Shown one piece after another: positions 1 through 30,607 of a stretch of 32,042 bases of DNA (positions are counted from its first letter, which is position 1; each line of letters begins with the position of its first letter). The stretch is from an uncultured Candidatus Peregrinibacteria bacterium (GTDB taxonomy: Bacteria; Patescibacteriota; Gracilibacteria; Peribacterales; Peribacteraceae). Made by a program: the position numbers and the translations under genes. Below the pieces are notes generated by a model. It saw only the letters and a list, made by a program, of their open reading frames with translations, was not told where the DNA came from and did not search any database. The stretch spans positions 1 through 32,042 of the forward strand of contig CAIJNU010000060.1 of the NCBI GenBank assembly GCA_903822115.1. The letters are read 5' to 3'.

Positions 1-321
1 CTGATCTAACACTACAAGCTGCCTGTTCACATCATGCATAAATGAGTGGTCAGAATCATATAGAAGAGCTTCCTGATAACTGAGAGGCAAATTGATGTCC
101 GTCTGCTTGAGATCCAAACCTTCCAGATACAGAAATGCTGACCTAATTTCTTTTAGTTCTTTATCCGTTGAGTGATTCAATTTCTTCCATCCATGCTTTT
201 TACGTAAAACAGAAACTGCTTTGAGAAAATCTTTCCGGTTCACGATGCAGCCAACCACATAGGCCGTTGAGGGGTCATAATGTTCAAAATCCGCATCGGT
301 GAAGGTGAGAGGATCTTTCAT
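1..321 (-). CDS. hypothetical protein, partial (runs off left edge; N-terminal 107 codons visible)
   Basis: Minus-strand ATG at 321-319, with the frame open to position 1 (MKDPLTFTDADFEHYDPSTAYVVGCIVNRKDFLKAVSVLRKKHGW...). It is absent from the ORF track because no stop lies inside the window. About 40% GC. No domain recognised. Confidence 0.4.
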   Translation of the reverse strand, partial: MKDPLTFTDADFEHYDPSTAYVVGCIVNRKDFLKAVSVLRKKHGWKKLNHSTDKELKEIRSAFLYLEGLDLKQTDINLPLSYQEALLYDSDHSFMHDVNRQLVVLDQ

Positions 322-326
322 AGTTC

Positions 327-376
327 ACTACGTCACTCTTCCATATTCTAGCCTACGGATGAATTTCTGACGTAGT
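327..376. repeat. perfect 9-bp inverted repeat with 32-bp spacer, directly downstream of the recombinase gene
   Basis: ACTACGTCA (327-335) and its exact reverse complement TGACGTAGT (368-376). The spacer holds a minus-strand TAGAAT (345-350). TAGTTCA also occurs as a direct repeat at 321-327 and 373-379. Confidence 0.5.
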
Positions 377-2176
377 TCAAACCGCGATAGCAAAGTCATT
401 ACGCTGGAAACGGGTCATTTCCCTAATTGAAGCCATTTCCACTTCCATCACCACCACATAGTGAGTTTGAGGACGTGTGTTACCACATGTGTCACCAGAG
501 TGCATAACACTCTTGGTGACTTTATTATGTCTGGGGATCAAAAGCTCAATTCTGACGCGTTCGGGGAAGATTTCGATGCGCATTACGAGTTCTTGGACGA
601 TCCGCCGCTTAGTATCAAAGTCATCGAGTTTTTGAAGTTCCTTGGCATATCGCTTGGCAATTTCCTCTGCCGACATCAGCCGGTCTTTCTTTTCGTCCTC
701 GTCCATTAGTTCACTGCAAATACGATCTCGATCAGAGGTGATCTTCGCCTTCGTATCTTCGATCTCTTTGCCCTTTGCCTCAATCTCGCCATCCTTCTGA
801 TACTTCAGCCCCTTTTCGTAGAGATTGCATGCTCTGACGTATTCTTGATCGAATTCTTCCAGCAATGCGTCACAGGCATCGCGCTCGGCGGTGAGCTTGG
901 GTATGTCGAGTGTTTTTTGCTGCTCTGCCTGTACGCGCTCAATGAACGACTTCGGATCGGCAAGCAGACTTTCTATTTCGCTCCACACCTTCGCTTCCAG
1001 CACTTGCCCAGAAATCTGCCGATTGTTGCATCGTTCCAATGATTTATCAGCTGTTCTCTTGCATCGATAATTGCAATACTCACCGGCCAGAGTTTTTTTC
1101 CCTTTCACCTGCTTCCACTTCGGTTGTATGTAGCCCCCATAGGCAGATTTGCAATCCTGCCGACCGCAATGCACTTTGCCCGACAGAAGATACTCATGCT
1201 TCACGTTGCGCGGTTCACTAACGCTCTGGGCAAGGATTTCTTGGGCTTTCTCCCAAAGTGATCTGTTGATGATTTGAGAGCAGCGTATTGGTCTCCACAG
1301 CTCACGTGGGTTCGCAACATCCTTCTTCTTTTTCGTCTTGGGATCGCGCTTCGTGGTGCGCTTGTTGAAGTAGTATGTACCAGTATAAGCCTCTTGTCGG
1401 AGAATGCGTGTGATCGTTTTCACATGCCAGAAATTAGGGGGGTTCTTTTTACGGAAGCTTTGCATATCAGCCTTTTTCTTTTTGAGTTCTTCAAATTTTT
1501 TATCAGCCTTAGTCGCAATCTTCATACCATTGAGACGCTGTTGGACTTCATAGGCGGTCATCCTGCGTTTTACGTACCAGTTGAAAATCTTTTTCACGAT
1601 CTCCTCCTCTTCGGGATTCACCGACATCTTCTGCGTTGTAGGGTCAACATCGTAGCCATAGGGCGGATACTTCCCCCCTACCCACTTACCAGCCTCTGCC
1701 GCGGCCTCTCGTCCCGATGCGGTACGTTCTAAAATCAGATCACGCTCCATTTCGGCAATAATGCCGAGCAGCCCAAGCATGAATCTCCCCATGTTTGTTG
1801 TGGTGTTGATTTCCGTCTGGGTGGTTGCGATGAAACCTACACCCATTTCAGTGAGATGCTCGATAGCATTCAACAGCAAACGTGTCTTGCGAAAAAAACG
1901 ATCGAGCTTCCAGACCATCACAATGTCGATGTCATTGCGCTTTACTGCATCAAAAAGTCTGGGCAGGGCTTCCCGCTCATCGATCTCTGAAGCGCCCGAA
2001 TACCCAAGATCCTTGTAGGTGTGTTTCGGCTCGAACTGATATTCATCACTGTGCGCTTCGAGCCATTTGAGCATCTGCGACTCCTGCACTTTGTCACCGT
2101 ACTTCTCTGCCTGTTCGTCGCTACTCACGCGAATGTACAAGCCGACTCGTTTTTTGTGCTTCATTACTTCTTTCAT
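377..2176 (-). CDS. large serine recombinase (resolvase/invertase catalytic domain + recombinase domain + zinc ribbon + coiled coil)
   Basis: N-terminus VGLYIRVSSDEQ carries the catalytic Ser motif. IVMVWKLDRFFR matches the resolvase core. A Cys-rich zinc-ribbon-like segment (CGRQDC...CNYRCK) is followed by a long charged coiled-coil tail. At 599 aa this is the large serine recombinase architecture. TAGAAT (2184-2189, minus) lies 7 nt upstream of the ATG. Confidence 0.9.
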   Translation of the reverse strand: MKEVMKHKKRVGLYIRVSSDEQAEKYGDKVQESQMLKWLEAHSDEYQFEPKHTYKDLGYSGASEIDEREALPRLFDAVKRNDIDIVMVWKLDRFFRKTRLLLNAIEHLTEMGVGFIATTQTEINTTTNMGRFMLGLLGIIAEMERDLILERTASGREAAAEAGKWVGGKYPPYGYDVDPTTQKMSVNPEEEEIVKKIFNWYVKRRMTAYEVQQRLNGMKIATKADKKFEELKKKKADMQSFRKKNPPNFWHVKTITRILRQEAYTGTYYFNKRTTKRDPKTKKKKDVANPRELWRPIRCSQIINRSLWEKAQEILAQSVSEPRNVKHEYLLSGKVHCGRQDCKSAYGGYIQPKWKQVKGKKTLAGEYCNYRCKRTADKSLERCNNRQISGQVLEAKVWSEIESLLADPKSFIERVQAEQQKTLDIPKLTAERDACDALLEEFDQEYVRACNLYEKGLKYQKDGEIEAKGKEIEDTKAKITSDRDRICSELMDEDEKKDRLMSAEEIAKRYAKELQKLDDFDTKRRIVQELVMRIEIFPERVRIELLIPRHNKVTKSVMHSGDTCGNTRPQTHYVVVMEVEMASIREMTRFQRNDFAIAV

Positions 2177-2227
2177 TAAAGAAATTCTATAGCCTTTTTG
2201 GCTTGAAATACACCAATTTTTGGCTGC

Positions 2228-2569
2228 TCAACTTCCCTGGCTCTTTAGCAAAGCAGGCTCAAACATCAGAACGAAAGATTTTCTTACGCTCTTCGGACAA
2301 TGTTCGACACCTTTCGGGACCATTCCGATCTCGCCCGCTTTCAGAATCAGATTGGGCTGATCTTTTAGTTGAATAGTGATTTCGCCTTTGTAGACAAAGA
2401 AAAGCTCGTCCTCGTTCTCATGTACATGCCAGTGATATTCACCTTCGAACATTGCCATGCGCACGACTTGATCGTTCACCCGCGCCAATTCAATAGGTGA
2501 CCACGGCACAGTGATCTTTTTTGCTGCCTCTTCGAGATTGGTGGGGAGAAATTGCATAATATTTCTCAA
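2228..2569 (-). CDS. cupin domain protein
   Basis: Two-motif cupin signature GEYHWHVHENEDELFFVYKGE ... GEIGMVPKGVEHCP. The start overlaps the upstream stop (ATGA at 2566-2569), which implies translational coupling. Confidence 0.75.
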   Translation of the reverse strand: MRNIMQFLPTNLEEAAKKITVPWSPIELARVNDQVVRMAMFEGEYHWHVHENEDELFFVYKGEITIQLKDQPNLILKAGEIGMVPKGVEHCPKSVRKSFVLMFEPALLKSQGS

Positions 2570-3261
2570 AGTTCGAATGTAGGTTGCTCTTTATCCAAGA
2601 TTGCAATGCGCGTTTGAGCTTTGCAATATTGCTGAACAAGCTGCGCAAGCTCTTCAAGGATCGACTGCAATTTCTCTTTCGTTAAAGGCGGAAAACCCTC
2701 TACGACGATGATGGCATTCTTTGAGTTGTTCGTGATCTTGGTGCGATCACCTTCCCTCCAATTCAACTTGCGACAAATCACACCCTTATCATCTTTATAC
2801 ACCAGCTCGCCCTTTACCGGAGGATCTTCAGCTGCTTCGCCAAGAGGTAGGAACTGCTCTGTACCTTCTGCGTATGCAAGCCGCACGTCGCCTTCACAGA
2901 GGTCCGTATCCTCTGCACCTGCGCACACCACATAGCGAAGAGAAATGACGTTATACAGGTCTACAAGCGGGTTGATACTTGGTAGCTGGCCTCCCTTCAC
3001 AACGCGTTTGATGAGTGCCTGTGCAGAGGGTGGGAACTTATTCGGGTTATTGCCGAAGCTGCGATGGATTTCATGCATCACTTGAAGATGCGGATGGTCT
3101 TTGAAGGTTTCGAGGGTGGTAGATTTTCGAACTTCTTCCTCCTGCGCTCGCAGCAGGGCAGCTGTCTGCTGCCCTGTATTATCTACATTGGTCGCAACAA
3201 TGACACCAATGGCCATGTCGCGGTGATCTGCCAATACTTTGGGATCAATCAGAAAGTGCAT
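2566..3261 (-). CDS. standalone B3/4 domain protein (PheRS beta-subunit editing-domain-like)
   Basis: LRYVVCAGAEDTD...RLAYAEGTEQFLPLGE...GELVYKDDKGVICRKLNWREGDRTKIT...AIIVVEG resembles B3/4-domain proteins. The ORF opens at 3270. I prefer the ATG at 3261 (MHFLIDPK...) because a minus-strand TACAAT (3269-3274) lies 7 nt upstream. Confidence 0.65.
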   Translation of the reverse strand: MHFLIDPKVLADHRDMAIGVIVATNVDNTGQQTAALLRAQEEEVRKSTTLETFKDHPHLQVMHEIHRSFGNNPNKFPPSAQALIKRVVKGGQLPSINPLVDLYNVISLRYVVCAGAEDTDLCEGDVRLAYAEGTEQFLPLGEAAEDPPVKGELVYKDDKGVICRKLNWREGDRTKITNNSKNAIIVVEGFPPLTKEKLQSILEELAQLVQQYCKAQTRIAILDKEQPTFEL

Positions 3262-3308
3262 ATTTGGCATTGTATAGAAAGGAATGAGTTAAAAGAATGG
3301 GATGAAAT

Positions 3309-3926
3309 TCATTTTTTGGAATGCATGAATTCCACTCGCTCACAGATTCTTCTCGAAAATCTTCCCCATCGAACTAAAGGCTCGGTTCGCAGTATTTCAA
3401 TAATGAATGGCATCGGCATGCCAGCTTGCTTCAACGATTCAACAGCATCAAAAGCTTGTTCAAGTAGATGTTCATATTCGGGTCCAAATATGCGATCAAC
3501 CTTTTCTAGGAGAGAAGGTACCCCATGCAGGGATGACGTATACAATTTCCGAAGATCGGAAATGTAATCGTACAACCCTCCATCAGCCTCTTTTTTTTGT
3601 AATATCGGTTCAATCTCTGTTCGACCAGCATGCCTATAGTAGGCAAGAATTTCGTCCTTTAGGTTCCGATCTGCATCGCCCTGTCGGCGCGCGCGAACAT
3701 TTCTTATGATGCCATCGACAAGTTCCTCATCTGATACTTCCGGGGTGGACTCTGATGGCTCCCAAAGGAAATTCATCGGAGCATGGTTGAAAAATTTCTG
3801 TTGAACGTGCTCTTCCTCGTGTGCGTATATCTTCACCTGTTCCCAAGCAAACGGAAGCTGCATGGCATTTTTTTCTACAGTTACCGCATTCTGCAATGCA
3901 GAGGGCAAACGATTATTATTACTCAC
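3309..3926 (-). CDS. hypothetical protein (start uncertain)
   Basis: The ORF is open to 4049, but its first ~40 codons are Arg-rich antisense of the neighbouring Ig/MBG remnant. Candidate starts are GTG 3926 (AGGAGGA at 3936-3942, minus) and ATG 3863. No domain recognised. Lower GC than the backbone. Confidence 0.4.
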   Translation of the reverse strand: MSNNNRLPSALQNAVTVEKNAMQLPFAWEQVKIYAHEEEHVQQKFFNHAPMNFLWEPSESTPEVSDEELVDGIIRNVRARRQGDADRNLKDEILAYYRHAGRTEIEPILQKKEADGGLYDYISDLRKLYTSSLHGVPSLLEKVDRIFGPEYEHLLEQAFDAVESLKQAGMPMPFIIEILRTEPLVRWGRFSRRICERVEFMHSKK

Positions 3927-3986
3927 TATTGCAAATCCTCCTGATCGCCCAGAGCGAAGGCGTTCTTTTTCTGATAGTTCCTGTGA

Positions 3987-4643
3987 AGCCTGGGCACGGC
4001 TACCGTCTCTCACGGAAGCGGTATGTCGGTCGTCTCGACGCTGATGCATGCTGGAACGTACAGCATGACTGCGATATACGGAGGAGATAACAACTACGCC
4101 ACGGCGACATCCGCTGCACAGAGTTTGACAGTAAATAAGTATGCACTCACGGTCTCAGCGATAAGCCAATCGAAAATCCACAACGACGGCGATCCAAACT
4201 TCACCTACCAGATCACGAGTGGCACTCTTGTGGGAAGCGATACCCTCACAGGCACCCCAACGCGAACGAGCGGTGAAGATGATGGGGCCTATGACATCAC
4301 GCAGGGGTCAGTGAGTGCCAGCAATGATTACACTCTCACCTTCGTGAATGGGACATTGACCATCAAGACTCTGGCGGGGGGAAGTGGTAGTGGCGGAGGT
4401 GGAGGCGGTGGAGGAGGCGGAGGAAGAAGTAGTTATACCCCTCCCATATCATCCCCATCAGTGACCTCGCCTCCCCCGAGCGGCGGTACTGTGAACGCCC
4501 ACCAAGAGACGCTGGTCCAGAGAATCGGAAGGCGACTTGCACATGCACCTGATGCGGTCATTGAGCGATTCTCAAGGACCCTCGCCCGCCGCCTGCACAC
4601 GGACGCTGCGACCATCAAAGGTCTGCTGATGAGCGGCAGGTAA
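3987..4643 (+). pseudogene. 5'-truncated surface protein remnant: partial Ig-like repeat + MBG-type domain + poly-Gly linker + C-terminal tail
   Basis: The frame opens only at 3987, after the in-frame TGA at 3984-3986, with no signal peptide. It begins mid-repeat: GTATVS...AGTYSMTAIYGGDNNYATATSAAQSLTV matches the Ig-repeat consensus seen in the 23968-25227 protein. YALTVSAISQSKIHNDGDPNFTYQITSGTLVGSDTLTGTPTRTSGEDDGAYDITQG...YTLTFVNGTLTI then matches the MBG-domain pattern. The first ATG is at 4023. Confidence 0.6.
4377..4424 (+). repeat. GGN/AGT simple-sequence tract encoding GGSGSGGGGGGGGGGG
   Basis: Eleven consecutive Gly codons at 4392-4424, preceded by GGSGS, read directly from the sequence. 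Confidence 0.8.
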
Positions 4644-4660: not shown

Positions 4661-4691
4661 AAAAAGCCCCTCTCCTCGAGGGGCTTTTTTG
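4661..4691 (+). terminator. rho-independent terminator
   Basis: AAAAAGCCCCTC-TCCTC-GAGGGGCTTTTTTG: an 8-bp GC-rich stem, a 5-nt loop and a T6 tract, 18 nt after the TAA at 4641-4643. Confidence 0.8.
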
Positions 4692-4769
4692 CTCTCATTA
4701 CTCTCGAAATGAATGTTCTCAAGAAAGAAAACGGAGGTCGTGATCACCAAAATCCCCTATACTCCTCCC

Positions 4770-5492
4770 ATGACGAAGTCAGTCTTAGTCTGTCTGCATG
4801 GATGGGGTGGATCCGGGGAGTCCTTCACCGAATTACACCAGGCTCTCGCAGGTAGCGGCATCGAAATCCTGACGCCGGACCTCCCGGGGTTCGGCGCTGA
4901 ACCTGAGCCTGCGAAGCCATGGTGCGTGGATGATTATGCTAAGTGGGTCGAAGCCTGGGTGAAGGAACACGCCGCCGATTCCCCGATCCAACTTCTCGGC
5001 CACTCGCACGGCGGAAGAGTCGCGATCAAGATCGCCGTGAACGGCAATCTGAAGATCGATCACCTCTACCTCTGCGCCGCCGCCGGTATTCCCCATCGAC
5101 GTAGGATGAGGAGAGCAGTAGGTTTTTTTCTCGCAAAGATCGGACGATTCCTCCTTTCTCCGTTCGGCTCCACATTCGCCGCCGGGGGGAAGAAGCTCCT
5201 CTACAAACTCTTCCGCGTACACGACTTCGAGAATGCCTCCGTCGTCATGCGGGAAACGATGATCAAGGTTTCCGGGGAAGATCTCCGACCGATCCTGCAT
5301 GACATCAACGTTCCCACGGACATCTTCTGGGGCACGGAAGACACCATGACGCCAGTTGCCGATGCAAAAGTAATGCACGAGGCCATCGAAGGCAGCGTGC
5401 TCCATCTCTATCCCGGGGTGCGGCATCGCGTCCACAGGGATCGCACGCGGGAAATCGCGGCCATTATTATCGAACGCAGCCGAATTTCGTGA
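4770..5492 (+). CDS. alpha/beta hydrolase fold protein
   Basis: VLVCLHGWGGSGESF (oxyanion region), the nucleophile elbow LLGHSHGGRVA (GHSxG) and a C-terminal HxxH region. The ORF opens at 4713. I prefer the ATG at 4770 (MTKSVLVCLHGWGG) because TATACT (4758-4763) lies 6 nt upstream. Confidence 0.8.
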   Translation: MTKSVLVCLHGWGGSGESFTELHQALAGSGIEILTPDLPGFGAEPEPAKPWCVDDYAKWVEAWVKEHAADSPIQLLGHSHGGRVAIKIAVNGNLKIDHLYLCAAAGIPHRRRMRRAVGFFLAKIGRFLLSPFGSTFAAGGKKLLYKLFRVHDFENASVVMRETMIKVSGEDLRPILHDINVPTDIFWGTEDTMTPVADAKVMHEAIEGSVLHLYPGVRHRVHRDRTREIAAIIIERSRIS

Positions 5493-7081
5493 GAGAACCG
5501 ACTGTCCTTGGACTCCTCGGGATCCTCGAAATCCTCTATGCTGTGCCCATCTCCACGAGAATAATCCTCATCGGCCTCTCTCTCCTCGCGTCCCTGTCAC
5601 CTCTCTGCACCTTCGCGTCGTTTTGGCAGATAAAAGAGTGGCGCTGGGACCGCCTGAGAGAGCACGTGAAGCGCGAGGGGATCGTCGTCCTCTTCTCCCT
5701 CTCCCGACTCGCCTTGCTCGCCACAGCCGTTGTCTTTGTTGCGGCGCAAATCACCACTTCGCTCAATGCACTCGTCGCACTTCTGTCACTTCTGACGATT
5801 ATCGGGATTGTCCAGGTATCGATGCGCAGACAACCCTTTCCCGTATGGACTTCCAAAGCGATGGTCCTGACAGGCGTCGCCATTGTCGCCGACTTCCTCC
5901 TGGCCATCATCCTCGCACCTTCGGCCGCGAAACTCTCTCTCGGTCTTCTTCCGTTTCTGCAGTTTCTGATCCTTGCGACGGCCTGGTCACTGTTCTATCC
6001 ACTCGACCGATACTTGAAAGCGAAGACAATCCGGCAGGCAACGTCGCTGCGCGTAAAGTTCCCGCACCTGCGTGTCATCGGAGTGACGGGAAGCGTGGGA
6101 AAGACCACGACGAAGGAGCTCCTCGCACACATTCTCGGCGATCTCCACCCTCTCTCGACCCCGGCTCATGTGAATTCGGAGCTGGGAGTGGCGCGGTGGC
6201 TGCTCTCTATTCTTTCGAAAACGCAGCACGATTCTTCGCAACCGGTCATTGTCGAGATGGGAGCCTACCGAAGCGGAGAAATCGCGACGCTCAGCCGAAT
6301 GGCTCAACCTATCTACGGCGTCATCACCTTTATCGGTTCACAGCATCTGGCGCTATTCGGCTCGAGGGAGGCGCTCATCGCAGCCAAGGGAGAACTCCTG
6401 GAATCGCTGCCGGTGTCGGGAAAGGCCTTCATCAACGGGGACAGTGATGCGAGCCTGCAGACACGCCATCTCTGCGTGTGCCCCGTGGTCGTTGTGGGAA
6501 CCGGAGAACGAGCGGATGACATTGCGACGGAGATCGAAGAGATGAGGAATGGATTGAAGTTCAAATTCGGCCAGACGATGTTCACCGTCCCCCTCCACGG
6601 CACGCACAATGTCGCGAACGTGCTCCTCGCCATCGAAGTCGCAAAGGAGCTGGGACTGCGCGAGGAGCGCATTGCGGAGAAACTGAAGACATTCGCCCCC
6701 CTCCACCAGACATTCGAGGTTCGAGAGGAGAGGGGCATCACCATTCTCGACGACACGCACAACTCCAGCGCCGCGAGCTTCCAGGCTGCGATCACGTGGG
6801 CCGACGCACAACCCTTCGAGCGGAAGGTGCTTCTCTCAAGCGGCATCATCGAGCTCGGTGAAGAGAGTGCACGAACGCACCGGGAGCTGGGATCGCTTGC
6901 TTCAGACGTATTCGATGCCGCGTTCTTCCTCGATCGCAAGAGTGCAGAGCTCTTCCGTGCGGGATTTGAGAAGAGCGTAAGTATGCTCACCAAAGACGCA
7001 CCCACCCTTTCGACTTCGACACTTCTCGTCTGCGTCGGAAGAATACCGCCTGAGAGCATTCGCATTTTGTTACCGAAGTAA
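5489..7081 (+). CDS. MurF-like Mur-family ligase with N-terminal polytopic membrane domain
   Basis: Residues 1 to ~185 form about 6 hydrophobic helices. After them come the Mur-ligase P-loop VIGVTGSVGKTTTKELLAHIL, the central domain, and a C-terminal LDDTHNSSAASFQAAITWA (compare MurF DDxYNANPxS). The GTG start overlaps the upstream stop (GTGA at 5489-5492). Confidence 0.75.
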   Translation: MREPTVLGLLGILEILYAVPISTRIILIGLSLLASLSPLCTFASFWQIKEWRWDRLREHVKREGIVVLFSLSRLALLATAVVFVAAQITTSLNALVALLSLLTIIGIVQVSMRRQPFPVWTSKAMVLTGVAIVADFLLAIILAPSAAKLSLGLLPFLQFLILATAWSLFYPLDRYLKAKTIRQATSLRVKFPHLRVIGVTGSVGKTTTKELLAHILGDLHPLSTPAHVNSELGVARWLLSILSKTQHDSSQPVIVEMGAYRSGEIATLSRMAQPIYGVITFIGSQHLALFGSREALIAAKGELLESLPVSGKAFINGDSDASLQTRHLCVCPVVVVGTGERADDIATEIEEMRNGLKFKFGQTMFTVPLHGTHNVANVLLAIEVAKELGLREERIAEKLKTFAPLHQTFEVREERGITILDDTHNSSAASFQAAITWADAQPFERKVLLSSGIIELGEESARTHRELGSLASDVFDAAFFLDRKSAELFRAGFEKSVSMLTKDAPTLSTSTLLVCVGRIPPESIRILLPK

Positions 7082-7112
7082 AGTCGCTTACTTTTTCACC
7101 TACACTCTGTTC

Positions 7113-8348
7113 GTGTCACGCGTCATCCATCACTCATTCGGCCCTCTCGCAGATGCTGACCAGCAACGCTTGGCGTGGCATCTTATCCTAAACCCCCACA
7201 TGCTGAAGACGGAGCACGCACGCGAAGAATTGCGCTCATCGCTCGCCACAAGCGGGAAAGGCGACGCCTCTCTCTTCGCCTCCGGCAGAGAAGGCCTCCT
7301 CGCACTGCTTCGCGCATGCGAATTTCCCACGGGATCCGAAGTGATCGTCCAAGCGTACACATGTGTCGTGGTTCCCAACGCCATCCACGCCGCGAAACTC
7401 ACGACGATCTACGCGGACATTGAAAAAGAGACGCTCAATATCGACCCTTCATCTCTCGAATCCATCATCACTCCTCGCACGAAAGCTGTCATCTGCCAGC
7501 ACACCTTCGGCATTCCCGCAGATGTCCAGAAAATTCGAGAAATTTGCGACAAGAATGGGCTGATGTTGATCGAAGATTGCGCGCACGTTCTCCCCGATGC
7601 ACTTGGCCCCGAGGAAATCATGAGTCTCGGCGATGCCATGCTCTTGAGTTTCGGAAGGGACAAAGCCATCTCGGGCGTCAGCGGCGGAGCGATCATCTGC
7701 CGCAAAGAAACAGTCTCCCATCGACTGCAGAAACTGGAGAAATCCGCCATTCCCCTGCCCCCGAGCACTATTCGCCGCCTCCTCCTCTACCCCATCTTCT
7801 ATGGACTCGCGCGACCGCTGATGGGATTGGGCCTCGGGAAAGCGCTCCTCACACTCCTGCGACAATTGCGCTTGCTTGTACCCATTGTCACAGCACAGGA
7901 GAAAGAAGGTCGGCAGGATGCGACACTCCATCAGATGCCGGAGGCATGTGCGATATTGGCACTCCAGCAATGGAAGAAGCTGCAGAAGATCAACGATCAT
8001 CGACGATCCCTCACACGATACTATCTAGAGGCTTCGGCGCAGATAGGTTGGCCGGTGCTCCACGGTGTTCGCTCCGATCTCCCGTTGCAGAAGTACCCGA
8101 TGTTCGTGCGTGATGCAGAGGGGATCAGGCGCGCACTCAAGAAGAAGAACATTCACCTCCATGACGGCTGGACGGGTTGCGTCGTCTGTCCCGCGTCCGC
8201 AGATCAGGGAAAAACAGGATACTGTGAGGGAAACGACAGAAATGCCGAAGAGGTCGCCGAGGAGATCCTCTCTCTTCCCACACATCCGGGAATGACGGAA
8301 GAGGATACGAAGAGGCTTGTGAGTGCCCTGACGCCGTTTCTTCGGTAG
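7113..8348 (+). CDS. DegT/DnrJ/EryC1/StrS-family PLP-dependent aminotransferase
   Basis: FASGREGLLALLRA...GSEVIVQAYTCVVVPNAI...AVICQHTFGIPADV...LIEDCAHVL...SFGRDKAISGVSGGAI contains the PLP-Lys motif. GTG start, with TACACT (7101-7106) 6 nt upstream. Confidence 0.85.
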   Translation: MSRVIHHSFGPLADADQQRLAWHLILNPHMLKTEHAREELRSSLATSGKGDASLFASGREGLLALLRACEFPTGSEVIVQAYTCVVVPNAIHAAKLTTIYADIEKETLNIDPSSLESIITPRTKAVICQHTFGIPADVQKIREICDKNGLMLIEDCAHVLPDALGPEEIMSLGDAMLLSFGRDKAISGVSGGAIICRKETVSHRLQKLEKSAIPLPPSTIRRLLLYPIFYGLARPLMGLGLGKALLTLLRQLRLLVPIVTAQEKEGRQDATLHQMPEACAILALQQWKKLQKINDHRRSLTRYYLEASAQIGWPVLHGVRSDLPLQKYPMFVRDAEGIRRALKKKNIHLHDGWTGCVVCPASADQGKTGYCEGNDRNAEEVAEEILSLPTHPGMTEEDTKRLVSALTPFLR

Positions 8349-8357
8349 CATAGCAAC

Positions 8358-9419
8358 ATGGAAATTCGCCCCGCCACCGATCCCCTCTCTTGGGACAGTT
8401 TCCTCCTGTCGCAACAATTTCGTCCGTTCCTTCAGAGTTGGACGATGGGCGAGGTGTACCGGGACATCGGACAGGAACCGATCCGACTGGAGGCACAGCA
8501 AGACGGGAAGACCATCGGCATCTGCTTCGCGCACATCGTCCACGCGAGGCGCGGCAGACATCTATCCGTGCCCTACGGCCCCGTTGTCGCATCGCAGGAG
8601 GCGCTGACGGCGCTCCTCGAAGCACTGACGAAAGTGGCGCAAGATCACCAGTGTGCATTCGTTCGCATCAGTCCGTTCTGGCCGTCTTCCTCCCCCTTCA
8701 TCCACAACCTCCCGTCATCATCGCTATCTTCTCCGCTCCATCTCCTCGCAGAGCACCTCTGGTATCTTCCGCTTCGCTCACCTGATGTCTGGGACCCAAC
8801 GCCCGCTGCTGACCACGAAGAAGGTACGAGAATCACAGAGGAAGCTTTGATGGCAGGAATGCGCTCAACAGCCCGAAATCTCATTCGACGTGCGAAGAAG
8901 GAGGGCGTTACCGTGACGCGATCAATGGATCCAGTCACCGATCTCCCCTCTTTCCTCAATCTCCACGATGAGACGAGACGACGCCACCACTTCACACCGT
9001 ACTCCACGTCATTCTTCCGCGCCCAGGTCTCCCGATTCGCGCGCTCGGGCAACGTCGCCCTCTACCTCGCGCACTACCAAGGAGAGGTGATTTCCGCCTC
9101 CATCCACATGATATTCGGCGGCGAAACCAGCTACCACCACGGCGCGAGCACGCTCAAGTACCGAAACATTCCCTCGAGCTACCTGCTCCAGTGGACCGCC
9201 ATCTGCGATGCGCTCGAGAGAGGAGATCGCGTCTACAACTTCTGGGGTGTCTCTCCGGAAGGCGCGAAGAAGCATCCTTTCGCCGGCGTGCGCACCTTCA
9301 AGACCGCTTTCGGAGGGAATCTGCTGGAGATCGCACACTGCAGGGACATTCCCCTCTCTCCGCTCTACCATCTCACGCGCGCCGTCGAAACGTGGCGCAA
9401 GTGGCGACGGGGTTTTTGA
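8358..9419 (+). CDS. FemAB-family (aminoacyl-tRNA-dependent) peptidoglycan peptide-branch transferase
   Basis: FLQSWTMGEVY..., RSTARNLIRRAKKEGVTV, LHDETRRRHHF, LYLAHYQGEVISASIHMIFGGETSYHHGAS and SSYLLQWTAICDALERGDRVYNFWGV follow the FemX/FemA/FemB pattern. TAGCAT (8346-8351) lies 6 nt upstream of the ATG. Confidence 0.85.
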   Translation: MEIRPATDPLSWDSFLLSQQFRPFLQSWTMGEVYRDIGQEPIRLEAQQDGKTIGICFAHIVHARRGRHLSVPYGPVVASQEALTALLEALTKVAQDHQCAFVRISPFWPSSSPFIHNLPSSSLSSPLHLLAEHLWYLPLRSPDVWDPTPAADHEEGTRITEEALMAGMRSTARNLIRRAKKEGVTVTRSMDPVTDLPSFLNLHDETRRRHHFTPYSTSFFRAQVSRFARSGNVALYLAHYQGEVISASIHMIFGGETSYHHGASTLKYRNIPSSYLLQWTAICDALERGDRVYNFWGVSPEGAKKHPFAGVRTFKTAFGGNLLEIAHCRDIPLSPLYHLTRAVETWRKWRRGF

Positions 9420-9436
9420 GCGCGTATGCTGTGAGC

Positions 9437-9757
9437 ATGAAGCAAGAAGAAGCCCTGACCAACGAGGAGAGGCTCGACAGGATTCTCCTCCACCTGGAGC
9501 GTCTCGATCGCCGAGACAAGATACGAACGTGGGGCGGGCTCGTTCACGGTATCCTCTCGCTCATCCCCACCGTGCTCCTCCTCTTGGGGCTCTGGTACTT
9601 TTACAATAATAGTGCGGCAATCATGCAATCCATTACGCAGCAAGCTGCGCAACAGGCGGCCGCCGTCGCATCGGGCATCCAAAAGGGAGCGGCTGTCTCC
9701 CTCCCAATCACTCCAGATGTGATCAAGCAATTGAAGCAAGCACTACACCTAAAATAA
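9437..9757 (+). CDS. small single-pass membrane protein, hypothetical
   Basis: MKQEEALTNEERLDRILLHLERLDRRDKIRTWGG, then the TM helix LVHGILSLIPTVLLLLGLWYFY, then a Q/A-rich tail. The track ORF from 9191 overlaps femAB. ATG 9437 has TATGCT (9425-9430) 6 nt upstream. Confidence 0.55.
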   Translation: MKQEEALTNEERLDRILLHLERLDRRDKIRTWGGLVHGILSLIPTVLLLLGLWYFYNNSAAIMQSITQQAAQQAAAVASGIQKGAAVSLPITPDVIKQLKQALHLK

Positions 9758-9782
9758 AAGCACGCCTCTCGACGTGCTTTTT
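9757..9782. terminator. bidirectional rho-independent terminator between convergent genes
   Basis: AAAAGCACG-CCTCTCGA-CGTGCTTTTT: a 9-bp stem flanked by an A-run and a T-run. It lies between the stop at 9755-9757 (+) and the stop at 9802-9804 (-). Confidence 0.7.
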
Positions 9783-9801: not shown

Positions 9802-11262
9802 TTACTTCACCAAGTGCAACACATCATCCGGCGTCATGGTTGGGGACACTGAGAAACTTGGCATGCTGAGGAATTGGCTGCGATTGACCTGCTTGTCCGG
9901 AATATTGCCGATACCGAAAAGGTAGCCGGCAGCAGCAGCCGTCTGCGCGACGCGGTCATTCACGCCGCCCTGCGGATAATCGATGGCAAAGACCGGCTTC
10001 GCCGTCATGTCCTCGAGGAGCTTGCGACTCTCCTGCACCTCCAGCGTCACCTGCGCATCTGTGAGCGCGCGCAGATCTTCGCCCGAGTGCCCCGCCGACT
10101 GGACATCGTATCCATTGGCGATGAGCGTGAGGAGCGTCTTCTGGGTAATGCCCGTAAGACCAACCTCTTTCGTCTGAATGAAGAACGTCGCCGGCACGCC
10201 AGCCGCCGAAAGCGCGTCAGATGCCGCCCGAATATTGCTCGCATTCAAGCCCTCGATCGCGACGACAACCGCCTTCGATGGAAGGCGCACATCCTTTGCT
10301 TCCTGCTGGATCACAATTTGTTGTACGTCTCGCATGAGAAGGAAGGTCAATCCCGCATTTTTCAGTTTCTGAAGTTGTGCGGGAAGGTTTTGCAATATGA
10401 CACTCTGACTCACGTCAAACTGGAGAATAGGAAGCGTAAATTTCTCCTGACGCACGATGAACGTCGGAGAGAACGACGCAATGTAGTCCATGGATACGTA
10501 AGCTTCCTTGCCATCAAATGAAATGCGCGCCCATCCCTTGTTGATCGAGAGAGGATGAAGGAATGTCAGATTGGGAATTTCCCCTATTTTCGCGCTCTTG
10601 GGATCCGCTTTCTGTCTAACATTCACATGAGCGTAGTGCACATAGTAGAGATTCGCGTACGGCTTCTTCTCATCAGCCAGACGATCACTCGTCGTGAGTC
10701 TTCCGAGGTACGTGATCGCGACGTATCCCGTCTGCCCGTCAGACATCTGTACTTTCGCCCATCCCGCATTCACGAATTCCACCACCGTCACCGCATCCCC
10801 GCGATTAAATCGGCCGATCTCCTTCCCCGAGACACTCGGCGACGACCGAATATTAAGAAACGAATTTGTAACCCTATAGACATTCCCCTGATCGACCGTC
10901 CCGCTCGCCCTCAACCCCTCATACTGCTTCACCATGGAGAGATCCAGAACCGGCGGTGCCTCCACTGCTGTTCCGCTCCCCGTCGTCGTATCCAAAGGAG
11001 CGAGAGAGGAAGCGACTGCGGTTCCGCTCGCCGTTCCAAGCCCCTGAGACGCCAAGCGTTGGAAACGAGCGATGTCCTGCTCGGTAAACGTGAGATTGTT
11101 CGCGTTCGAACCGGAAGACGTGGGAGGCTTCACAGGCGCGCTGCTACATCCCGCAAACAGAATGCCAAACGAGGCAATGAGGAGGAACGCCACGAGGGGT
11201 GCGACGAACGAGAATCGTTGGGCGCGCCTCGGGACTGCGCGGCGGGAACGGTAGCGAACCAT
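9802..11262 (-). CDS. lipoprotein with two SH3b domains and a C-terminal polysaccharide deacetylase (NodB/CE4-like) domain
   Basis: Signal peptide with lipobox (LLIASFGILFAGCSS). Two SH3b-like units (YRVTNSFLNIRSSPSVSGKEIGRFNRGDAVTVVE...GWAKVQMSDGQTGYVAITYL and YVHYAHVNVRQKADPKSAKIGEI...GWARISFDGKEAYVSMDYI). The C-terminal region ATFFIQTKEVG...ANGYDVQSAGHSGEDL is deacetylase-like. Confidence 0.7.
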   Translation of the reverse strand: MVRYRSRRAVPRRAQRFSFVAPLVAFLLIASFGILFAGCSSAPVKPPTSSGSNANNLTFTEQDIARFQRLASQGLGTASGTAVASSLAPLDTTTGSGTAVEAPPVLDLSMVKQYEGLRASGTVDQGNVYRVTNSFLNIRSSPSVSGKEIGRFNRGDAVTVVEFVNAGWAKVQMSDGQTGYVAITYLGRLTTSDRLADEKKPYANLYYVHYAHVNVRQKADPKSAKIGEIPNLTFLHPLSINKGWARISFDGKEAYVSMDYIASFSPTFIVRQEKFTLPILQFDVSQSVILQNLPAQLQKLKNAGLTFLLMRDVQQIVIQQEAKDVRLPSKAVVVAIEGLNASNIRAASDALSAAGVPATFFIQTKEVGLTGITQKTLLTLIANGYDVQSAGHSGEDLRALTDAQVTLEVQESRKLLEDMTAKPVFAIDYPQGGVNDRVAQTAAAAGYLFGIGNIPDKQVNRSQFLSMPSFSVSPTMTPDDVLHLVK

Positions 11263-14207: not shown

Positions 14208-16370
14208 GTGGCAAACACACCTCCAATCCCAAAGGCCCCCCACACTCCTCCCCCGCTCCTCGTCGCCATCGACGATCTGCTGGGTCTCCATAACCAAGCC
14301 GAGACCGCACTGACGAAAGGGAACGAAGGAGAAACGCTCACGCCCGCCGAACGCGAATCCATCAAGCACTACGAGGAAGGATTGCAGAAAATCCTCGATA
14401 TCATCGCACCCTCCGCCATGGAGATTCGCAATACGGAGATCCTCCTCAATGATCAGTTCGTGCGGACGCTCTACGTGTACAACTGGCCGAACTACATCTT
14501 CCCCAACTGGCTCTCGCAACTCGTGAACACCGACGCGCAGATGGAGATCTCGCAGTTCATCTACCCCTCAAGCAACAAAGCCATCCTGAAAATGCTCCGC
14601 AAGAAAGTCGTGGAATTGCGATCATCGATCCGCATGCTCGAACAGCGCGGCATCGTCCGCGATCCGTCGCTCGAGGCGGCACTGCAGGACGCCGAAGAGC
14701 TTCGGGATCTGCTCGCACGAGGCCGCGAAAAGCTCTTCCAGCTCGGCATGTACGTCACGATCTACGCCGAGGACGAGGAGAAGCTCAAGAAGCTGCAGAC
14801 GGACATCGAATCGATGCTCGGAGGAAAGCTCGTACTCACGCGGCCGTCATACTTCCAGATGGAGCACGCGTTCACGTCGACACTCCCGCTGTGTCTCGAC
14901 GAACTGGAGATCAACCGCAACATGAACACGTCGCCGCTCTCGACGAGCTTCCCCTTCTCCAGCTCCGACCTCACGAGCGACCACGGAATTCTCTACGGCA
15001 TCAACCGCCACAACGAAAGTCTCGTCATCTTCGACCGCTTCGATCTACCCAATGCGAACGCAAACGTGTTCGCCATCTCCGGCGCAGGAAAATCGTTCGC
15101 GGTGAAGCTCGAGATTCTGCGCTCGCTCATGCTCGACACCGAAGTGCTCGTCGTCGATCCGGAGAACGAGTACGTCGACCTCTGCAAGACCGTCGGCGGA
15201 TCGTTCGTTCCCCTCTCGCTCCAGAGCTCCCTGCACCTCAACCCCTTCGATCTACCGCGCGCCGTTCGCGGAGAGGAAGCGGAGACGGGAGAAGTGCTGC
15301 GCGCGGCCACCATCAACCTCCACGGACTCTTCAAGCTCATGCTCGGCAGCCTGACGCCCGCGGAAGATGGCATCTTGGACAAGGCAATCATCGACACCTA
15401 CGCGCTCAAGGGCATCGCTCTCACGACGCCCAACCCCGGCAGCAACGAACCGCCCACGCTCCACGACCTCGTCGACGTACTCCTGACAACGGAGGGCGGC
15501 GAGAACATGGCAAAGGTGCTCCAGAAGTACACAGCCGGAAGCTACGCGGGCATCTTCGATCAGCAGACGAACGTGAAGATGGAGAACCAGCTCGTCGTCT
15601 TCCAGATTCGCGATCTCGAGGAGCAGCTGCGTCCCATCGCGATCTACATCGTGCTGAACTTCCTCTGGAATAAGGTGCGAAGCGAACTCAAGAAGCGCTA
15701 TCTCGTCATAGATGAAGCGTGGAACCTGATGCAACACGAGGATTCCGCGCGCTTCCTCTTCGGCATCGTGAAGCGGGCGCGCAAGTACTTCCTCGGCATC
15801 ACGACGATCACGCAGGACATCGAAGACTTCGTGAATTCGCCCTACGGAAAACCGATCATCACGAACTCCTCGCTCCAGATCCTCCTGCGCCAGTCCCCCA
15901 CCGCCGTCGACAACCTCCAGAAACTCTTCTACCTCACGGAGGGTGAGAAGTACGTCCTTCTCAACTCCGGCATCGGGCAGGGAATCTTCTTCGCCTCCAA
16001 CAAGCACGTCGCCATCGAGATCATCGCGAGCCCCTCGGAGGCGGCGATCATCACCACGAAGCCGGAGGAAATCCTCGCGAAGCGTGCGGAGCAGGCCATC
16101 GTGGAGCGAGAGAAAGTCATCCAGGCACGCAAGCAGGGCGTCGATGCCCAGAACGTCAATCTCCCGCTCGCTTCAGTGCAACCGTCAACTCCGACTGCGG
16201 CACCGACCCCCGTCCCCGAGGGCCATCCCGCAACTGAACCGGTCCCGCTCACGCCTTCCACACCCGTCCCAACACCGACACCCCCTGCGGAAAAAAAGAC
16301 AGAGCAGCCGCAAACATCTGCGACACCGCTGACCCAGGTGACGCCACCACCGGAAGCGATGCCTCAGTGA
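14208..16370 (+). CDS. virB4: VirB4/TraC/PrgJ-like type IV secretion ATPase with Pro/Thr-rich C-terminal tail
   Basis: Walker A FAISGAGKSFAVK, LHLNPFDL, Walker B RYLVIDEAWNLM and ITTITQDIEDF. The N-terminal region is typical of Gram-positive-type VirB4 (RTLYVYNWPNYIFPNWLSQL). The last ~68 aa (about 16164-16367) are P/T/A-rich low complexity. Confidence 0.85.
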   Translation: MANTPPIPKAPHTPPPLLVAIDDLLGLHNQAETALTKGNEGETLTPAERESIKHYEEGLQKILDIIAPSAMEIRNTEILLNDQFVRTLYVYNWPNYIFPNWLSQLVNTDAQMEISQFIYPSSNKAILKMLRKKVVELRSSIRMLEQRGIVRDPSLEAALQDAEELRDLLARGREKLFQLGMYVTIYAEDEEKLKKLQTDIESMLGGKLVLTRPSYFQMEHAFTSTLPLCLDELEINRNMNTSPLSTSFPFSSSDLTSDHGILYGINRHNESLVIFDRFDLPNANANVFAISGAGKSFAVKLEILRSLMLDTEVLVVDPENEYVDLCKTVGGSFVPLSLQSSLHLNPFDLPRAVRGEEAETGEVLRAATINLHGLFKLMLGSLTPAEDGILDKAIIDTYALKGIALTTPNPGSNEPPTLHDLVDVLLTTEGGENMAKVLQKYTAGSYAGIFDQQTNVKMENQLVVFQIRDLEEQLRPIAIYIVLNFLWNKVRSELKKRYLVIDEAWNLMQHEDSARFLFGIVKRARKYFLGITTITQDIEDFVNSPYGKPIITNSSLQILLRQSPTAVDNLQKLFYLTEGEKYVLLNSGIGQGIFFASNKHVAIEIIASPSEAAIITTKPEEILAKRAEQAIVEREKVIQARKQGVDAQNVNLPLASVQPSTPTAAPTPVPEGHPATEPVPLTPSTPVPTPTPPAEKKTEQPQTSATPLTQVTPPPEAMPQ

Positions 16371-20785: not shown

Positions 20786-21175
20786 TCAAGCCCCTCCTCC
20801 CGCCGCAGCCGTGAGCAGTGTCACGGCATAGACGATGACGGCATCCGCGACCATCGCAGCAATGAGGCCGATGACGACGTTCGTCGCGATCTTCTTGGCT
20901 TCGTTGAACCCCTCCTCGTTTCCGCCGCCCGACATCATCTTCACGCCGGCGTAGATCAACATCGCCACTCCCACTCCCGCGATGAGACCGAGGATCGTCG
21001 TGTTGATTTTGCCAAAGAGCGTATCGGGCAGATTCGCGCCCTCGGAGCTCATCGGAAAAACATCTTTGATCTGGGACCACATGTCCGAGATGCCCGGCCC
21101 GCTCCCGATCTGATCCAGCGTCACAGCGGAAGCCTTGGGAATGAACAAGCCGAGAATGGTGAGAAAAAAATTCAT
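20786..21175 (-). CDS. VirB2/TrbC-like T4SS pilin-type small membrane protein
   Basis: Signal peptide MNFFLTILGLFIPKASA, then two hydrophobic helices joined by a short polar loop (LIAGVGVAMLIYAGVKMMSGGGNEEGFNEAKKIATNVVIGLIAAMV). The M-x-SGG loop motif is shared with the neighbouring paralogues. Only 4 nt separate it from the upstream gene. Confidence 0.55.
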   Translation of the reverse strand: MNFFLTILGLFIPKASAVTLDQIGSGPGISDMWSQIKDVFPMSSEGANLPDTLFGKINTTILGLIAGVGVAMLIYAGVKMMSGGGNEEGFNEAKKIATNVVIGLIAAMVADAVIVYAVTLLTAAAGGGA

Positions 21176-22273: not shown

Positions 22274-22351
22274 GCGGATGTAGCTCAGTTGGCTTAGAGC
22301 GTCGCCTTGCCAAGGCGAAGGTCGCGGGTTCGAGCCCCGTCATCCGCTCCA
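22274..22351 (+). tRNA. tRNA-Gly(GCC): tRNA-Gly, anticodon GCC, CCA encoded
   Basis: Manual cloverleaf: acceptor GCGGATG/CATCCGC, D-arm GCTC/GAGC, anticodon arm TCGCC-TTGCCAA-GGCGA, T-arm GCGGG-TTCGAGC-CCCGT, discriminator T, then CCA. Confidence 0.9.
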
Positions 22352-30599: not shown

Positions 30600-30607
30600 G
30601 TGACAAG

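Follow-up and report, generated by a model that had tools for sequence, protein, structure and literature searches.

Layout of the gene cluster

A stretch of 32,042 nucleotides from an uncultured Candidatus Peregrinibacteria bacterium of the family Peribacteraceae (assembly GCA_903822115.1, contig CAIJNU010000060.1, positions 1 to 32,042), referred to here in its entirety as the window, harbours five consecutive genes on the + strand, among them a ligase of the MurF type that carries a membrane domain where canonical MurF has its N-terminal domain. Open reading frame (ORF) calling on the window places these genes at 4713 or 4770 to 9757, between two strong hairpin terminators, and in order they encode an alpha/beta hydrolase, the MurF-type ligase, a DegT-family protein, a FemAB-family protein and a small membrane protein (Table 1). 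The junctions comprise a 4-nt GTGA overlap at 5489-5492 followed by gaps of 31, 9 and 17 nt; with such short or overlapping junctions, the five genes form a tight same-strand unit and a candidate operon. The hydrolase gene has three candidate start codons, an ATG at 4713, a GTG at 4740 and an ATG at 4770, of which the last is favoured because homologs of 240-244 amino acids (aa) align only from query residue 11 to 24 onward. An earlier reading of this DNA, made from its letters and termed here the sequence-only reading, had begun the cluster at 4758, where there is no start codon; 4770 is the likelier position.

The hairpin at the left boundary has a folding energy of -25.5 kcal/mol (z = -7.9) and that at the right boundary has energies of -10.5 and -16.1 kcal/mol on the two strands (z = -4.1 on the + strand and -4.9 on the - strand); in neither case was any of 200 shuffled sequences as stable. 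The right-hand hairpin is called bidirectional because it folds on both strands and has A and T runs on either side. In combining a GC-rich hairpin with a U tract and a stability beyond that of shuffles, both elements match predicted rho-independent terminators. Terminator-like sites as a class are not enriched in a generic scan (9 found against 7.3 expected), although the two boundary hairpins individually beat all shuffles, and one weak terminator-like site lies within the ligase gene, at 6184-6207. A search of the whole window against Rfam at the gathering threshold found no riboswitch or leader upstream of the cluster. The arrangement described by the sequence-only reading, namely five same-strand genes with a 4-nt overlap and gaps of 9-31 nt, bracketed by terminators, is therefore borne out in its junctions and in both hairpins.

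Table 1. Genes, domains and terminators of the cluster, followed by features of its surroundings
Feature	Position	Strand	Remarks
Alpha/beta hydrolase gene	4713-5492	+	259 aa ORF; stop overlaps MurF start (GTGA)
MurF-type ligase gene	5489-7081	+	530 aa; GTG start
N-terminal membrane domain of ligase, aa 1-189	5489-6055	+	Predicted from hydropathy, loop charges and AlphaFold2 helices
MurF-type ATP-dependent ligase core, central and C-terminal Mur ligase domains	6056-7081	+	Pfam, NCBIfam and fold match
DegT-family gene	7113-8348	+	411 aa; GTG start
FemAB-family gene	8358-9419	+	353 aa
Small membrane protein gene	9437-9757	+	106 aa; ATG at 9437
Rho-independent terminator (predicted), left boundary	4661-4691	+	Stem 4669-4683 followed by T run; closes upstream MBG-domain gene
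Bidirectional rho-independent terminator (predicted), right boundary	9756-9781	both	11 pairs; common to convergent deacetylase gene
Exported or anchored SH3b and polysaccharide (peptidoglycan-type) deacetylase gene, convergent	9802-11262	-	Two SH3_3 domains, 3e-24; Polysacc_deac_1, 1e-13
Large serine recombinase gene	377-2176	-	Low-GC segment
Cupin gene	2228-2569	-	Low-GC segment
B3_4-domain protein gene	2566-3270	-	Low-GC segment
ORF without assigned family	3309-4049	-	Low-GC segment
ORF with Big_3_5 end, MBG_2 and a run of 13 glycines	4023-4643	+	Start overlaps minus-strand ORF 3309-4049
TraG/VirB4-like ATPase gene	14208-16370	+	Syntenic with cluster throughout Peribacteria
Two T4SS_pilin-domain protein genes	20786-21175, 21180-21848	-	Syntenic with cluster throughout Peribacteria

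A MurF-type ligase with a membrane domain

The ligase core contains the P-loop GVTGSVGKTTTKE together with DDTHNSS and ELG motifs, and residues G201, S202, G204, K205 and T207 of the P-loop are, like DDTHN and ELG, invariant in 63 orthologs. Pfam places Mur_ligase_M at residues 199-385 (1.2e-31), whilst the top NCBIfam family is TIGR01143 (murF), with 206 bits over profile positions 65-373 of 418, followed by murC (81), murD (74), murE (54), cyanophycin synthetase (38), Mpl (38), MurT (NF052464; 19), FolC (17) and PgsB (17 bits). MurF chains of the Protein Data Bank (PDB) align to the ligase at 1e-27 to 8e-32. An AlphaFold2 model built on the 63 orthologs (pLDDT 94.3, pTM 0.89) has as the best Foldseek match of its soluble part the A. 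baumannii MurF 4qf5 (TM-score 0.69, 2.8 Å); the top 10 matches are all MurF, and about 385 columns are superposed on whole MurF structures. MurF (TIGR01143; 1gg4, 4qf5, 4cvm) is accordingly the closest match in both sequence and fold, sharing the central ATP-binding and C-terminal domains, the P-loop and the HN, DDT(Y/H)N and ELG motifs, and the MurF-like ATP-dependent ligase of the sequence-only reading is confirmed. The closest homologs, 46-57% identical, belong to metagenome-assembled genomes of Candidatus Peribacteraceae / Peregrinibacteria. As other identities for the ligase, MurT, CapB/PgsB, cyanophycin synthetase, FolC, Mpl, the pseudomurein ligases and CfbE were considered and rejected on the NCBIfam scores.

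MurF is treated as a soluble and universally three-domain enzyme that acts on a uridine diphosphate (UDP)-linked substrate, and it is regarded as an antibiotic target. Structures from E. coli and P. aeruginosa show that its N-terminal domain binds the UDP-N-acetylmuramic acid (UDP-MurNAc) end of the substrate. In contrast to canonical MurF, the window ligase does not have this domain of about 100 residues (PF01225), and a five-helix membrane domain, which is absent from the account of the sequence-only reading, stands in its place. Alignments to MurF, including those to the PDB chains, begin only at ligase residue ~185-195, equivalent to MurF residue ~100-118 and to position 65 of TIGR01143, and the canonical N-terminal domain is thus entirely absent. 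The membrane domain comprises five conserved transmembrane (TM) helices, at about residues 24-45, 64-86, 90-112, 124-144 and 149-169, from which a long linker helix leads into the P-loop strand. The two architectures separate cleanly among homologs: canonical murF products possess PF01225 and have no hydrophobic segments ahead of the P-loop, whereas those of the TM type (TM-MurF) have 3-7 such segments and no PF01225.

Two motifs in K/R-rich loops of the membrane domain are invariant, Q47-x-K49-x-x-R52-x-D54-R55 (QxKxxRxDR) and P118-x-x-T121-x-K123 (PxxTxK). In the Peribacteria orthologs (n = 63) they take the form of an invariant WQxKEWRxDRLxEH after helix 1 and an invariant RQPxPVWTxKA between helices 3 and 4, and Q47, K49, R52, D54, R55, P118, T121 (and K123) remain invariant across three lineages in which the domain as a whole is only 18-26% identical. 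Because these motifs are retained despite such low overall identity, the membrane domain is functional and not a mere anchor. By the positive-inside rule, the motif-bearing loops should face the cytoplasm. When the domain alone was searched with phmmer against 1.84 billion representative proteins, 72 proteins were recovered, essentially all of them TM-MurFs of 500-540 aa or fragments thereof, and a Foldseek search of the isolated domain model against the PDB gave nothing at E <= 0.001. TM-MurF is therefore a lineage-restricted fusion of single origin, its membrane domain being known only in fusion with MurF. Ferritin-type matches were rejected as a fold for this domain, with TM-scores of about 0.2.

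A conceptual precedent for a Mur ligase that works at the membrane is MurT, of the MurT/GatD lipid II amidotransferase, which likewise has a Mur-ligase fold without the UDP-binding N-terminal domain and which acts on a membrane-bound substrate, lipid II. However, MurT is a soluble enzyme with a DUF1727 domain at its C-terminus and with GatD as its partner, none of which applies here, and the resemblance is distant in both sequence (the 19 bits to NF052464 given above) and structure (Foldseek TM-score 0.37-0.39).

The partner proteins

The hydrolase matches Abhydrolase_1 of Pfam at 5e-24 (85.7 bits against a cutoff of 25.8), as well as Abhydrolase_6 and Hydrolase_4, and its nucleophile elbow, G77-H78-S79-x-G81-G82 (GHSxGG), is invariant in nine orthologs along with D191 and H219. 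Among solved structures it comes closest to generic esterases and lipases, and it also resembles S33 peptidases. It is predicted to be a cytoplasmic, catalytically intact alpha/beta-fold enzyme of the esterase/peptidase type. A second alpha/beta hydrolase is encoded in the window at 26785-27603 on the - strand (Abhydrolase_1, 4e-27), in a position unrelated to the cluster.

The DegT-family protein matches the Pfam family DegT_DnrJ_EryC1 at 2e-45 (156 bits against a cutoff of 19.8). In common with the DegT/DnrJ/EryC1/StrS sugar aminotransferases (PseC, ArnB, DesI and perosamine synthase), it has the large domain of fold-type I pyridoxal phosphate (PLP) enzymes, with the pyridine-binding aspartate D155 (IEDCAH) and the Schiff-base lysine K184 (SFGRDK) invariant in ten orthologs from three lineages. 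It differs from them in that its C-terminal half has diverged, in that no cutoff was reached for the NCBIfam equivalogs compared (PseC, ArnB, WecE, DesI and Per; at best, PseC 101 against 423 and ArnB 100 against 631), and in that no dehydratase or oxidoreductase partner is conserved, the invariable partner being MurF. It appears to be a divergent but catalytically intact PLP-dependent enzyme of the DegT/DnrJ/EryC1 family. The ortholog in Candidatus Peribacter riflensis, a relative for which five complete genomes were reported in 2016, was labelled 'perosamine synthetase' in that work at a sub-threshold score (154.5 against 333.9), and the same organism has another DegT, of the canonical kind, within a sugar cluster at a different place in its genome (PMC4736985).

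The FemAB-family protein matches FemAB of Pfam at 3e-33 (115.7 bits against a cutoff of 24) and Acetyltransf_6 at 1e-16. A profile of ten orthologs searched against the PDB retrieves S. aureus FemX (6snr, 5e-27) and FemA (1lrz, 5e-26), W. viridescens FemX (1ne9/3gkr, 2e-16) and, at 1e-10, Fem-fold aminoacyl-tRNA-dependent peptide synthases. The double-GNAT fold of the FemAB family is shared with W. viridescens FemX and with the FemX/FmhB and FemA of S. aureus, and the window protein is, like the first of these, a short form that lacks the coiled-coil arm. It differs from known FemX in scoring far below the equivalog cutoff (35 against 500) and in being linked genetically, within one unit, to MurF and DegT; its top NCBIfam match is the exopolysaccharide-associated PEP-CTERM FemAB family, at 50 bits and far under the cutoff. 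By these matches it is a true Fem protein, which would carry out aminoacyl-tRNA-dependent acylation of the amine at position 3 of the stem peptide. Staphylococcal Fem enzymes use dedicated tRNA-Gly species. Rfam identifies two tRNA-Gly genes on the + strand of the window, at 22274-22351 and 23811-23884, with the anticodons GCC and CCC; they lie 1.5 kb apart and about 13 kb from the FemAB gene.

With a single hydrophobic helix at about residues 31-57, the small protein is predicted to cross the membrane once. Pfam contains no family for it at E <= 0.01, in a scan extended to E <= 1. Its N-terminal half is 43-52% identical among Peribacteria loci, and it is absent in the two other lineages considered below. 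The convergent neighbour beyond the right-hand terminator, with two SH3_3 domains and a Polysacc_deac_1 domain, is the wall-binding SH3b deacetylase of the sequence-only reading, whose family assignments for the hydrolase, DegT, FemAB and small TM proteins are equally upheld by the domain matches, the retained PLP lysine and aspartate, the solved FemX and FemA structures and the single hydrophobic helix.

A conserved trio of TM-MurF, DegT and FemAB

The TM-MurF, DegT and FemAB genes occur together in all 15 loci analysed, with DegT directly 3' of TM-MurF in 15/15 and FemAB after DegT, and the junctions are frequently 4-nt overlaps. These loci, designated here by L numbers, represent three lineages of the candidate phyla radiation (CPR): the Peribacteria, a clade of L009, L088 and L089, one member of which (L088) is labelled 'Parcubacteria group bacterium' at NCBI, and Candidatus Andersenbacteria (L090-L092, identified through hits of their FemAB proteins). 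The lineages stand at 30-40% identity and have unrelated flanks. Among the matches listed in a scan of GTDB genomes with the TM-MurF alignment, at least four Peribacteria loci and one distant locus (L009) were of the TM type, and the other 75, canonical murF loci, served as the background control. At these 75 loci, which belong to other phyla, no homolog of DegT, FemAB or the hydrolase occurs within 10 kb.

Within the Peribacteria the whole block, including the arginyl-tRNA synthetase (ArgRS) and TraG/VirB4-like genes, is collinear, and synteny there is for that reason weak evidence on its own. The contig L087 of this lineage keeps the trio and the small protein, with flanks that differ. In the clade of L009, L088 and L089, in which the ligase is 32-34% identical, the genes run MreB-MreC-x-PBP2-GreA-LysRS-like-nucleotidyltransferase-SerRS-hydrolase-TM-MurF-DegT-FemAB, and the gene of a 421-aa protein with a marginal FtsQ/POTRA signal (Pfam at E <= 1) comes next. 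In the Andersenbacteria (L090-L092) the trio occurs without the hydrolase, between a MurD-MraY-PBP5-ScpAB-GT2 block and Wzy/GT/Wzx polysaccharide genes. Genes for the cell wall thus lie near the trio in each lineage, these being MurL-MurD2 and the SH3b deacetylase in the Peribacteria, MreB-MreC-PBP2 and the FtsQ/POTRA-like gene in the second clade and MurD-MraY-PBP5 in the Andersenbacteria. The hydrolase gene precedes TM-MurF in the Peribacteria and in L009, L088 and L089. The SH3b deacetylase is confined to the Peribacteria, where it is syntenic in L001-L008, L085 and L086; it is missing from this position in L087-L092.

This recurrence in three CPR lineages with different flanks, which answers to the neighbourhood conservation that the sequence-only reading had looked for, establishes that the trio is a genuine and ancient functional module, which the hydrolase often joins as a fourth member, whilst only the Peribacteria add the small TM protein and the SH3b deacetylase as accessories. 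An alternative scenario confines the functional link to MurF and FemAB and treats DegT and the hydrolase as passengers that genomic inertia has kept in place, in CPR genomes that are small and rearrange slowly, and that serve unrelated glycan or lipid metabolism. The collinearity of the whole Peribacteria block would allow for such inertia, as would the absence of the hydrolase from the Andersenbacteria, a kinase gene between hydrolase and MurF in L087, and the second, canonical DegT in the P. riflensis sugar cluster. Nevertheless, DegT lies between MurF and FemAB in 15 of 15 loci from lineages that are 30-40% identical and share no flanks, often with overlapping codons, and no such neighbour is found at the 75 canonical murF loci, so that this scenario is considered rather unlikely.

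Two observations on individual records may be added. L009 (CAYQCH010000019.1) is labelled 'uncultured Gammaproteobacteria bacterium', whilst its cluster and gene order match the CPR clade, and the label is probably wrong. In L088 (5922-7193) the seryl-tRNA synthetase (SerRS) is present as two ORFs of 184 and 236 aa, compared with a single gene of 428-429 aa in L089 and L009, which is probably due to a frameshift or an assembly error.

The ligase as the probable housekeeping MurF

The gene table of the complete P. riflensis genome, with KEGG Orthology (KO) assignments, contains a single murF row (K01929; gene _591, 511 aa), flanked by an alpha/beta hydrolase (_590) and a DegT (_592) (PMC4736985, supplementary file 2). 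Gene order at the window locus follows that of P. riflensis through FemAB, the SH3b deacetylase, ArgRS and TraG, and _591 is the ortholog of the window ligase. P. riflensis has one each of murA, murB, murC, murD, murE, mraY and murG, scattered round the chromosome, along with penicillin-binding proteins (PBPs), a D-Ala-D-Ala carboxypeptidase and two sortases; the table holds no other EC 6.3.2 ligase of the Mur type, folC or cyanophycin synthetase (PMC4736985). Since its ortholog is the only murF of a complete genome, the window ligase is probably the housekeeping MurF of its organism, and hence part of peptidoglycan synthesis, and not an extra paralogue. The gene does differ from canonical murF in lying outside any dcw cluster and in always having DegT and FemAB downstream.

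The sequence-only reading had proposed a dedicated pathway of a different kind, distinct from peptidoglycan synthesis, in which an additional MurF paralogue, together with the other three enzymes of the cluster, would build a peptide on an amino sugar or a lipid-linked envelope precursor. There is a logic to this pairing, in that DegT would make an amine and FemAB acylates amines, and the loss of the UDP-binding domain would fit a substrate that is not UDP-linked. The FemAB protein also has its closest NCBIfam family among exopolysaccharide-associated proteins, albeit far below the cutoff, and the trio of the Andersenbacteria adjoins the GT2, Wzy and Wzx polysaccharide genes. However, the one murF homolog of the complete P. 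riflensis genome is this very gene, and the product of MurF is needed there by an otherwise complete set of single-copy mur genes, by PBPs and by a D-Ala-D-Ala carboxypeptidase. MurF-specific motifs are moreover kept, and peptidoglycan and division genes adjoin the cluster in all three lineages. The survey of the canonical mur genes in this relative thus runs counter to an extra ligase, and a separate pathway is very improbable.

W. viridescens FemX uses UDP-MurNAc-pentapeptide, which is the product of MurF, as its substrate. The further claim of the sequence-only reading, that in characterised systems the enzymes of the cluster act in different pathways, accordingly goes too far for MurF and FemAB, which would catalyse consecutive steps because this FemX takes the MurF product directly; DegT may still represent an undescribed step.

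Supply of D-amino acids

The KO table of P. riflensis contains neither K01775 (alr) nor K01776 (glutamate racemase), nor a 'racemase' of any kind, and the only match to Ddl, gene _834 for a 467-aa hypothetical protein, has 22 bits against a cutoff of 126 (PMC4736985). The source of the presumed D-Ala-D-Ala substrate is in consequence unexplained in this organism, although it encodes PBPs and a carboxypeptidase. The missing alr and ddl may reflect a failure of annotation or scavenging by a symbiont. It is striking that MurF, the one enzyme to use up D-Ala-D-Ala, has been remodelled in this cluster and is tied to a PLP enzyme and to a Fem enzyme that forms peptide bonds. A search of the literature on CPR and alanine racemase found nothing relevant in what is searchable.

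For D-glutamate a non-standard route is at hand. In the MurD2/MurL route, described in Xanthomonas, L-Glu is ligated and then epimerised. Peribacteria relatives carry, 5-9 kb upstream of the cluster, a MurL epimerase gene followed by one for a ligase of the MurD type (L001, 3282-6140; L003, 1-2539; L085, 269-2870; L086, 3525-6121); the pair is not in the window. By analogy with Xanthomonas, this implies that the D-Glu of the Peribacteria is accounted for by a MurL-MurD2-type pair that attaches L-Glu and then epimerises it. The parallel with the present cluster is that the lineage departs from the textbook supply of D-amino acids and that a MurL and Mur-ligase pair is found near the cluster in relatives; the differences are that the pair lies outside the window and concerns another step of the pathway.

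Precedents also exist for a physical coupling of MurF to the step before it, or to a PLP enzyme from which its substrate comes, as NCBIfam curates fusions of MurF with alanine racemase (NF008897) and of MurE with MurF (NF008896). In the present case the coupling would be by operon, not by fusion, and the PLP enzyme has the DegT fold, not that of Alr (fold-type III).

These observations lend themselves to a model in which the trio jointly replaces alanine racemase, D-Ala-D-Ala ligase and MurF. DegT would provide D-Ala or an equivalent by racemisation or transamination, the Fem protein would make or lengthen the terminal peptide with residues from aminoacyl-tRNA, and TM-MurF would attach it at the membrane. 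In support of this model, P. riflensis has PBPs and a D-Ala-D-Ala carboxypeptidase yet no alr, no racemase and only a sub-cutoff ddl; the lineage already attaches first and epimerises afterwards in the case of D-Glu; the NF008897 fusions are an instance of coupling between MurF and a D-Ala-supplying PLP enzyme; aminoacyl-tRNA-dependent peptide synthases with the Fem fold are matched by the ortholog profile; and the adjacency of MurF and DegT is strict, with overlapping codons. Against it, the DegT protein retains the motifs typical of its family, no member of which is known to act on amino acids. Fem enzymes take their residues from L-aminoacyl- or glycyl-tRNA, whereas the PBPs require a terminus of the D-D type. 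That alr and ddl appear to be absent, in turn, comes from one 2016 annotation with hidden Markov models of one genome, and divergence or scavenging from a host may lie behind it. Such tail building independent of Alr and Ddl is thus decidedly unlikely. A broader form of the model, in which the last cytoplasmic step of peptidoglycan synthesis in these CPR lineages has been rebuilt, with TM-MurF acting on a lipid-linked tripeptide or in complex with MraY and with DegT and Fem replacing Alr and Ddl, is likewise unlikely.

Proposed function of the module

The favoured interpretation, which we regard as probable, is that the cluster represents a conserved CPR module, built on the housekeeping MurF, that completes the stem peptide of peptidoglycan and adds its branch on the cytoplasmic side of the membrane. 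The substrates, topology and order of the steps set out here are deduced from the domain architectures, motifs, gene linkage and single murF described above. TM-MurF, embedded in the membrane, would add the C-terminal dipeptide to MurNAc-tripeptide with ATP. The basic cytoplasmic loops of its membrane domain would take over from the missing UDP-binding domain, holding on to the substrate's diphosphate at the surface of the membrane. That substrate could be UDP-MurNAc-tripeptide, in which case the product would be passed directly to MraY, or a tripeptide linked to undecaprenyl diphosphate. The FemX-type enzyme would then place the first branch residue, drawn from aminoacyl-tRNA, on the diamino acid at position 3, where it may serve as the acceptor for cross-links and for sortase-anchored proteins. 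Because W. viridescens FemX acts on UDP-MurNAc-pentapeptide, MurF and FemX form a natural pair of consecutive steps, and the sortases of P. riflensis would use the branched stem.

The place of DegT in this scheme is less clear. The leading guess, to which slightly less than an even chance is given, is a nucleotide-sugar aminotransferase, which would provide an amino sugar for the glycan of the wall or for a polymer linked to it; the next guess, of low probability, is a supplier of D-alanine or another amine for the stem peptide.

Several points weigh against the favoured interpretation. No reason is apparent why DegT should take part in the completion of the stem peptide, and no partner that would form a keto-sugar is conserved in the cluster. 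To these may be added the unexplained origin of D-Ala-D-Ala in P. riflensis, discussed above. The status of sole murF is transferred from a 50%-identical ortholog in another species to a window of 32 kb. The TIGR01143 score of the ligase (205.9) is below the curated murF cutoff of 288.6, which is consistent with the missing N-terminal domain, and Mur_ligase_C is weak in the window protein (22.4 bits against a Pfam cutoff of 28.4), this domain being on record for many of its orthologs. In some relatives the unit is interrupted: the kinase gene of L087 separates the hydrolase from MurF, and in P. riflensis, L003 and L004 a gene on the opposite strand, for a short-chain dehydrogenase/reductase or a serpin, sits between DegT and FemAB, so that co-transcription is not universal. 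Finally, all of the protein functions proposed here are predicted from sequence and structural models.

All of the protein families involved are already known, and the gene itself was annotated as murF in the 2016 table. What appears to be undescribed is the exchange of the UDP-binding domain for a TM domain, its restriction to a few CPR lineages and the invariant linkage of MurF, DegT and FemAB; a literature search for membrane-anchored or TM MurF, and for CPR together with FemAB, found no description in what is searchable. The cluster thus represents a widespread environmental variant in which the sole MurF, devoid of the UDP-binding domain, is predicted to be integral to the membrane and is tied genetically to a FemX-type transferase and a PLP enzyme, in organisms that seem to be without the standard suppliers of D-Ala and D-Ala-D-Ala. 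Should the membrane domain bind MraY or a substrate that is lipid-linked, the division of wall synthesis into 'cytoplasmic' and 'membrane' stages would not be a fixed one. If DegT and FemAB feed the ligase, there would be a new way to the terminus of the stem peptide, by a tRNA- and PLP-dependent route to the part of the wall that is hit by beta-lactams and vancomycin. Even on a conservative reading, the annotation of P. riflensis, in which this MurF was treated as ordinary and DegT as a 'perosamine synthetase' (PMC4736985), stands to be corrected, and a defined and testable set of genes becomes available for the study of CPR cell walls.

Surroundings of the cluster

Upstream of the cluster, positions 1-4050 have a GC fraction of 0.46-0.47, compared with 0.51-0.60 in most of the remaining window, and relatives carry MurL-MurD2-GrpE and other genes at this place. 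The segment, which includes the large serine recombinase gene, has the appearance of a mobile element whose integration disrupted the ancestral synteny. At its edge, the ORF with the Big_3_5 end and the glycine run probably derives from a surface protein gene, of which it would be the truncated 3' part.

Downstream, the TraG/VirB4-like ATPase and the two T4SS_pilin-domain proteins would belong, as far as their domains indicate, to a system resembling type IV secretion or conjugation. Other genes in the window encode ArgRS, methionyl-tRNA synthetase (MetRS) and Ig-like surface proteins, and this gene content is in keeping with a CPR genome. Towards its end, adjacent genes for a sulfotransferase (29544-30716) and an arylsulfotransferase (ASST; 30608-31984), both on the - strand and with ORFs that overlap by about 100 nt, suggest sulfated components of the envelope or of its glycans.

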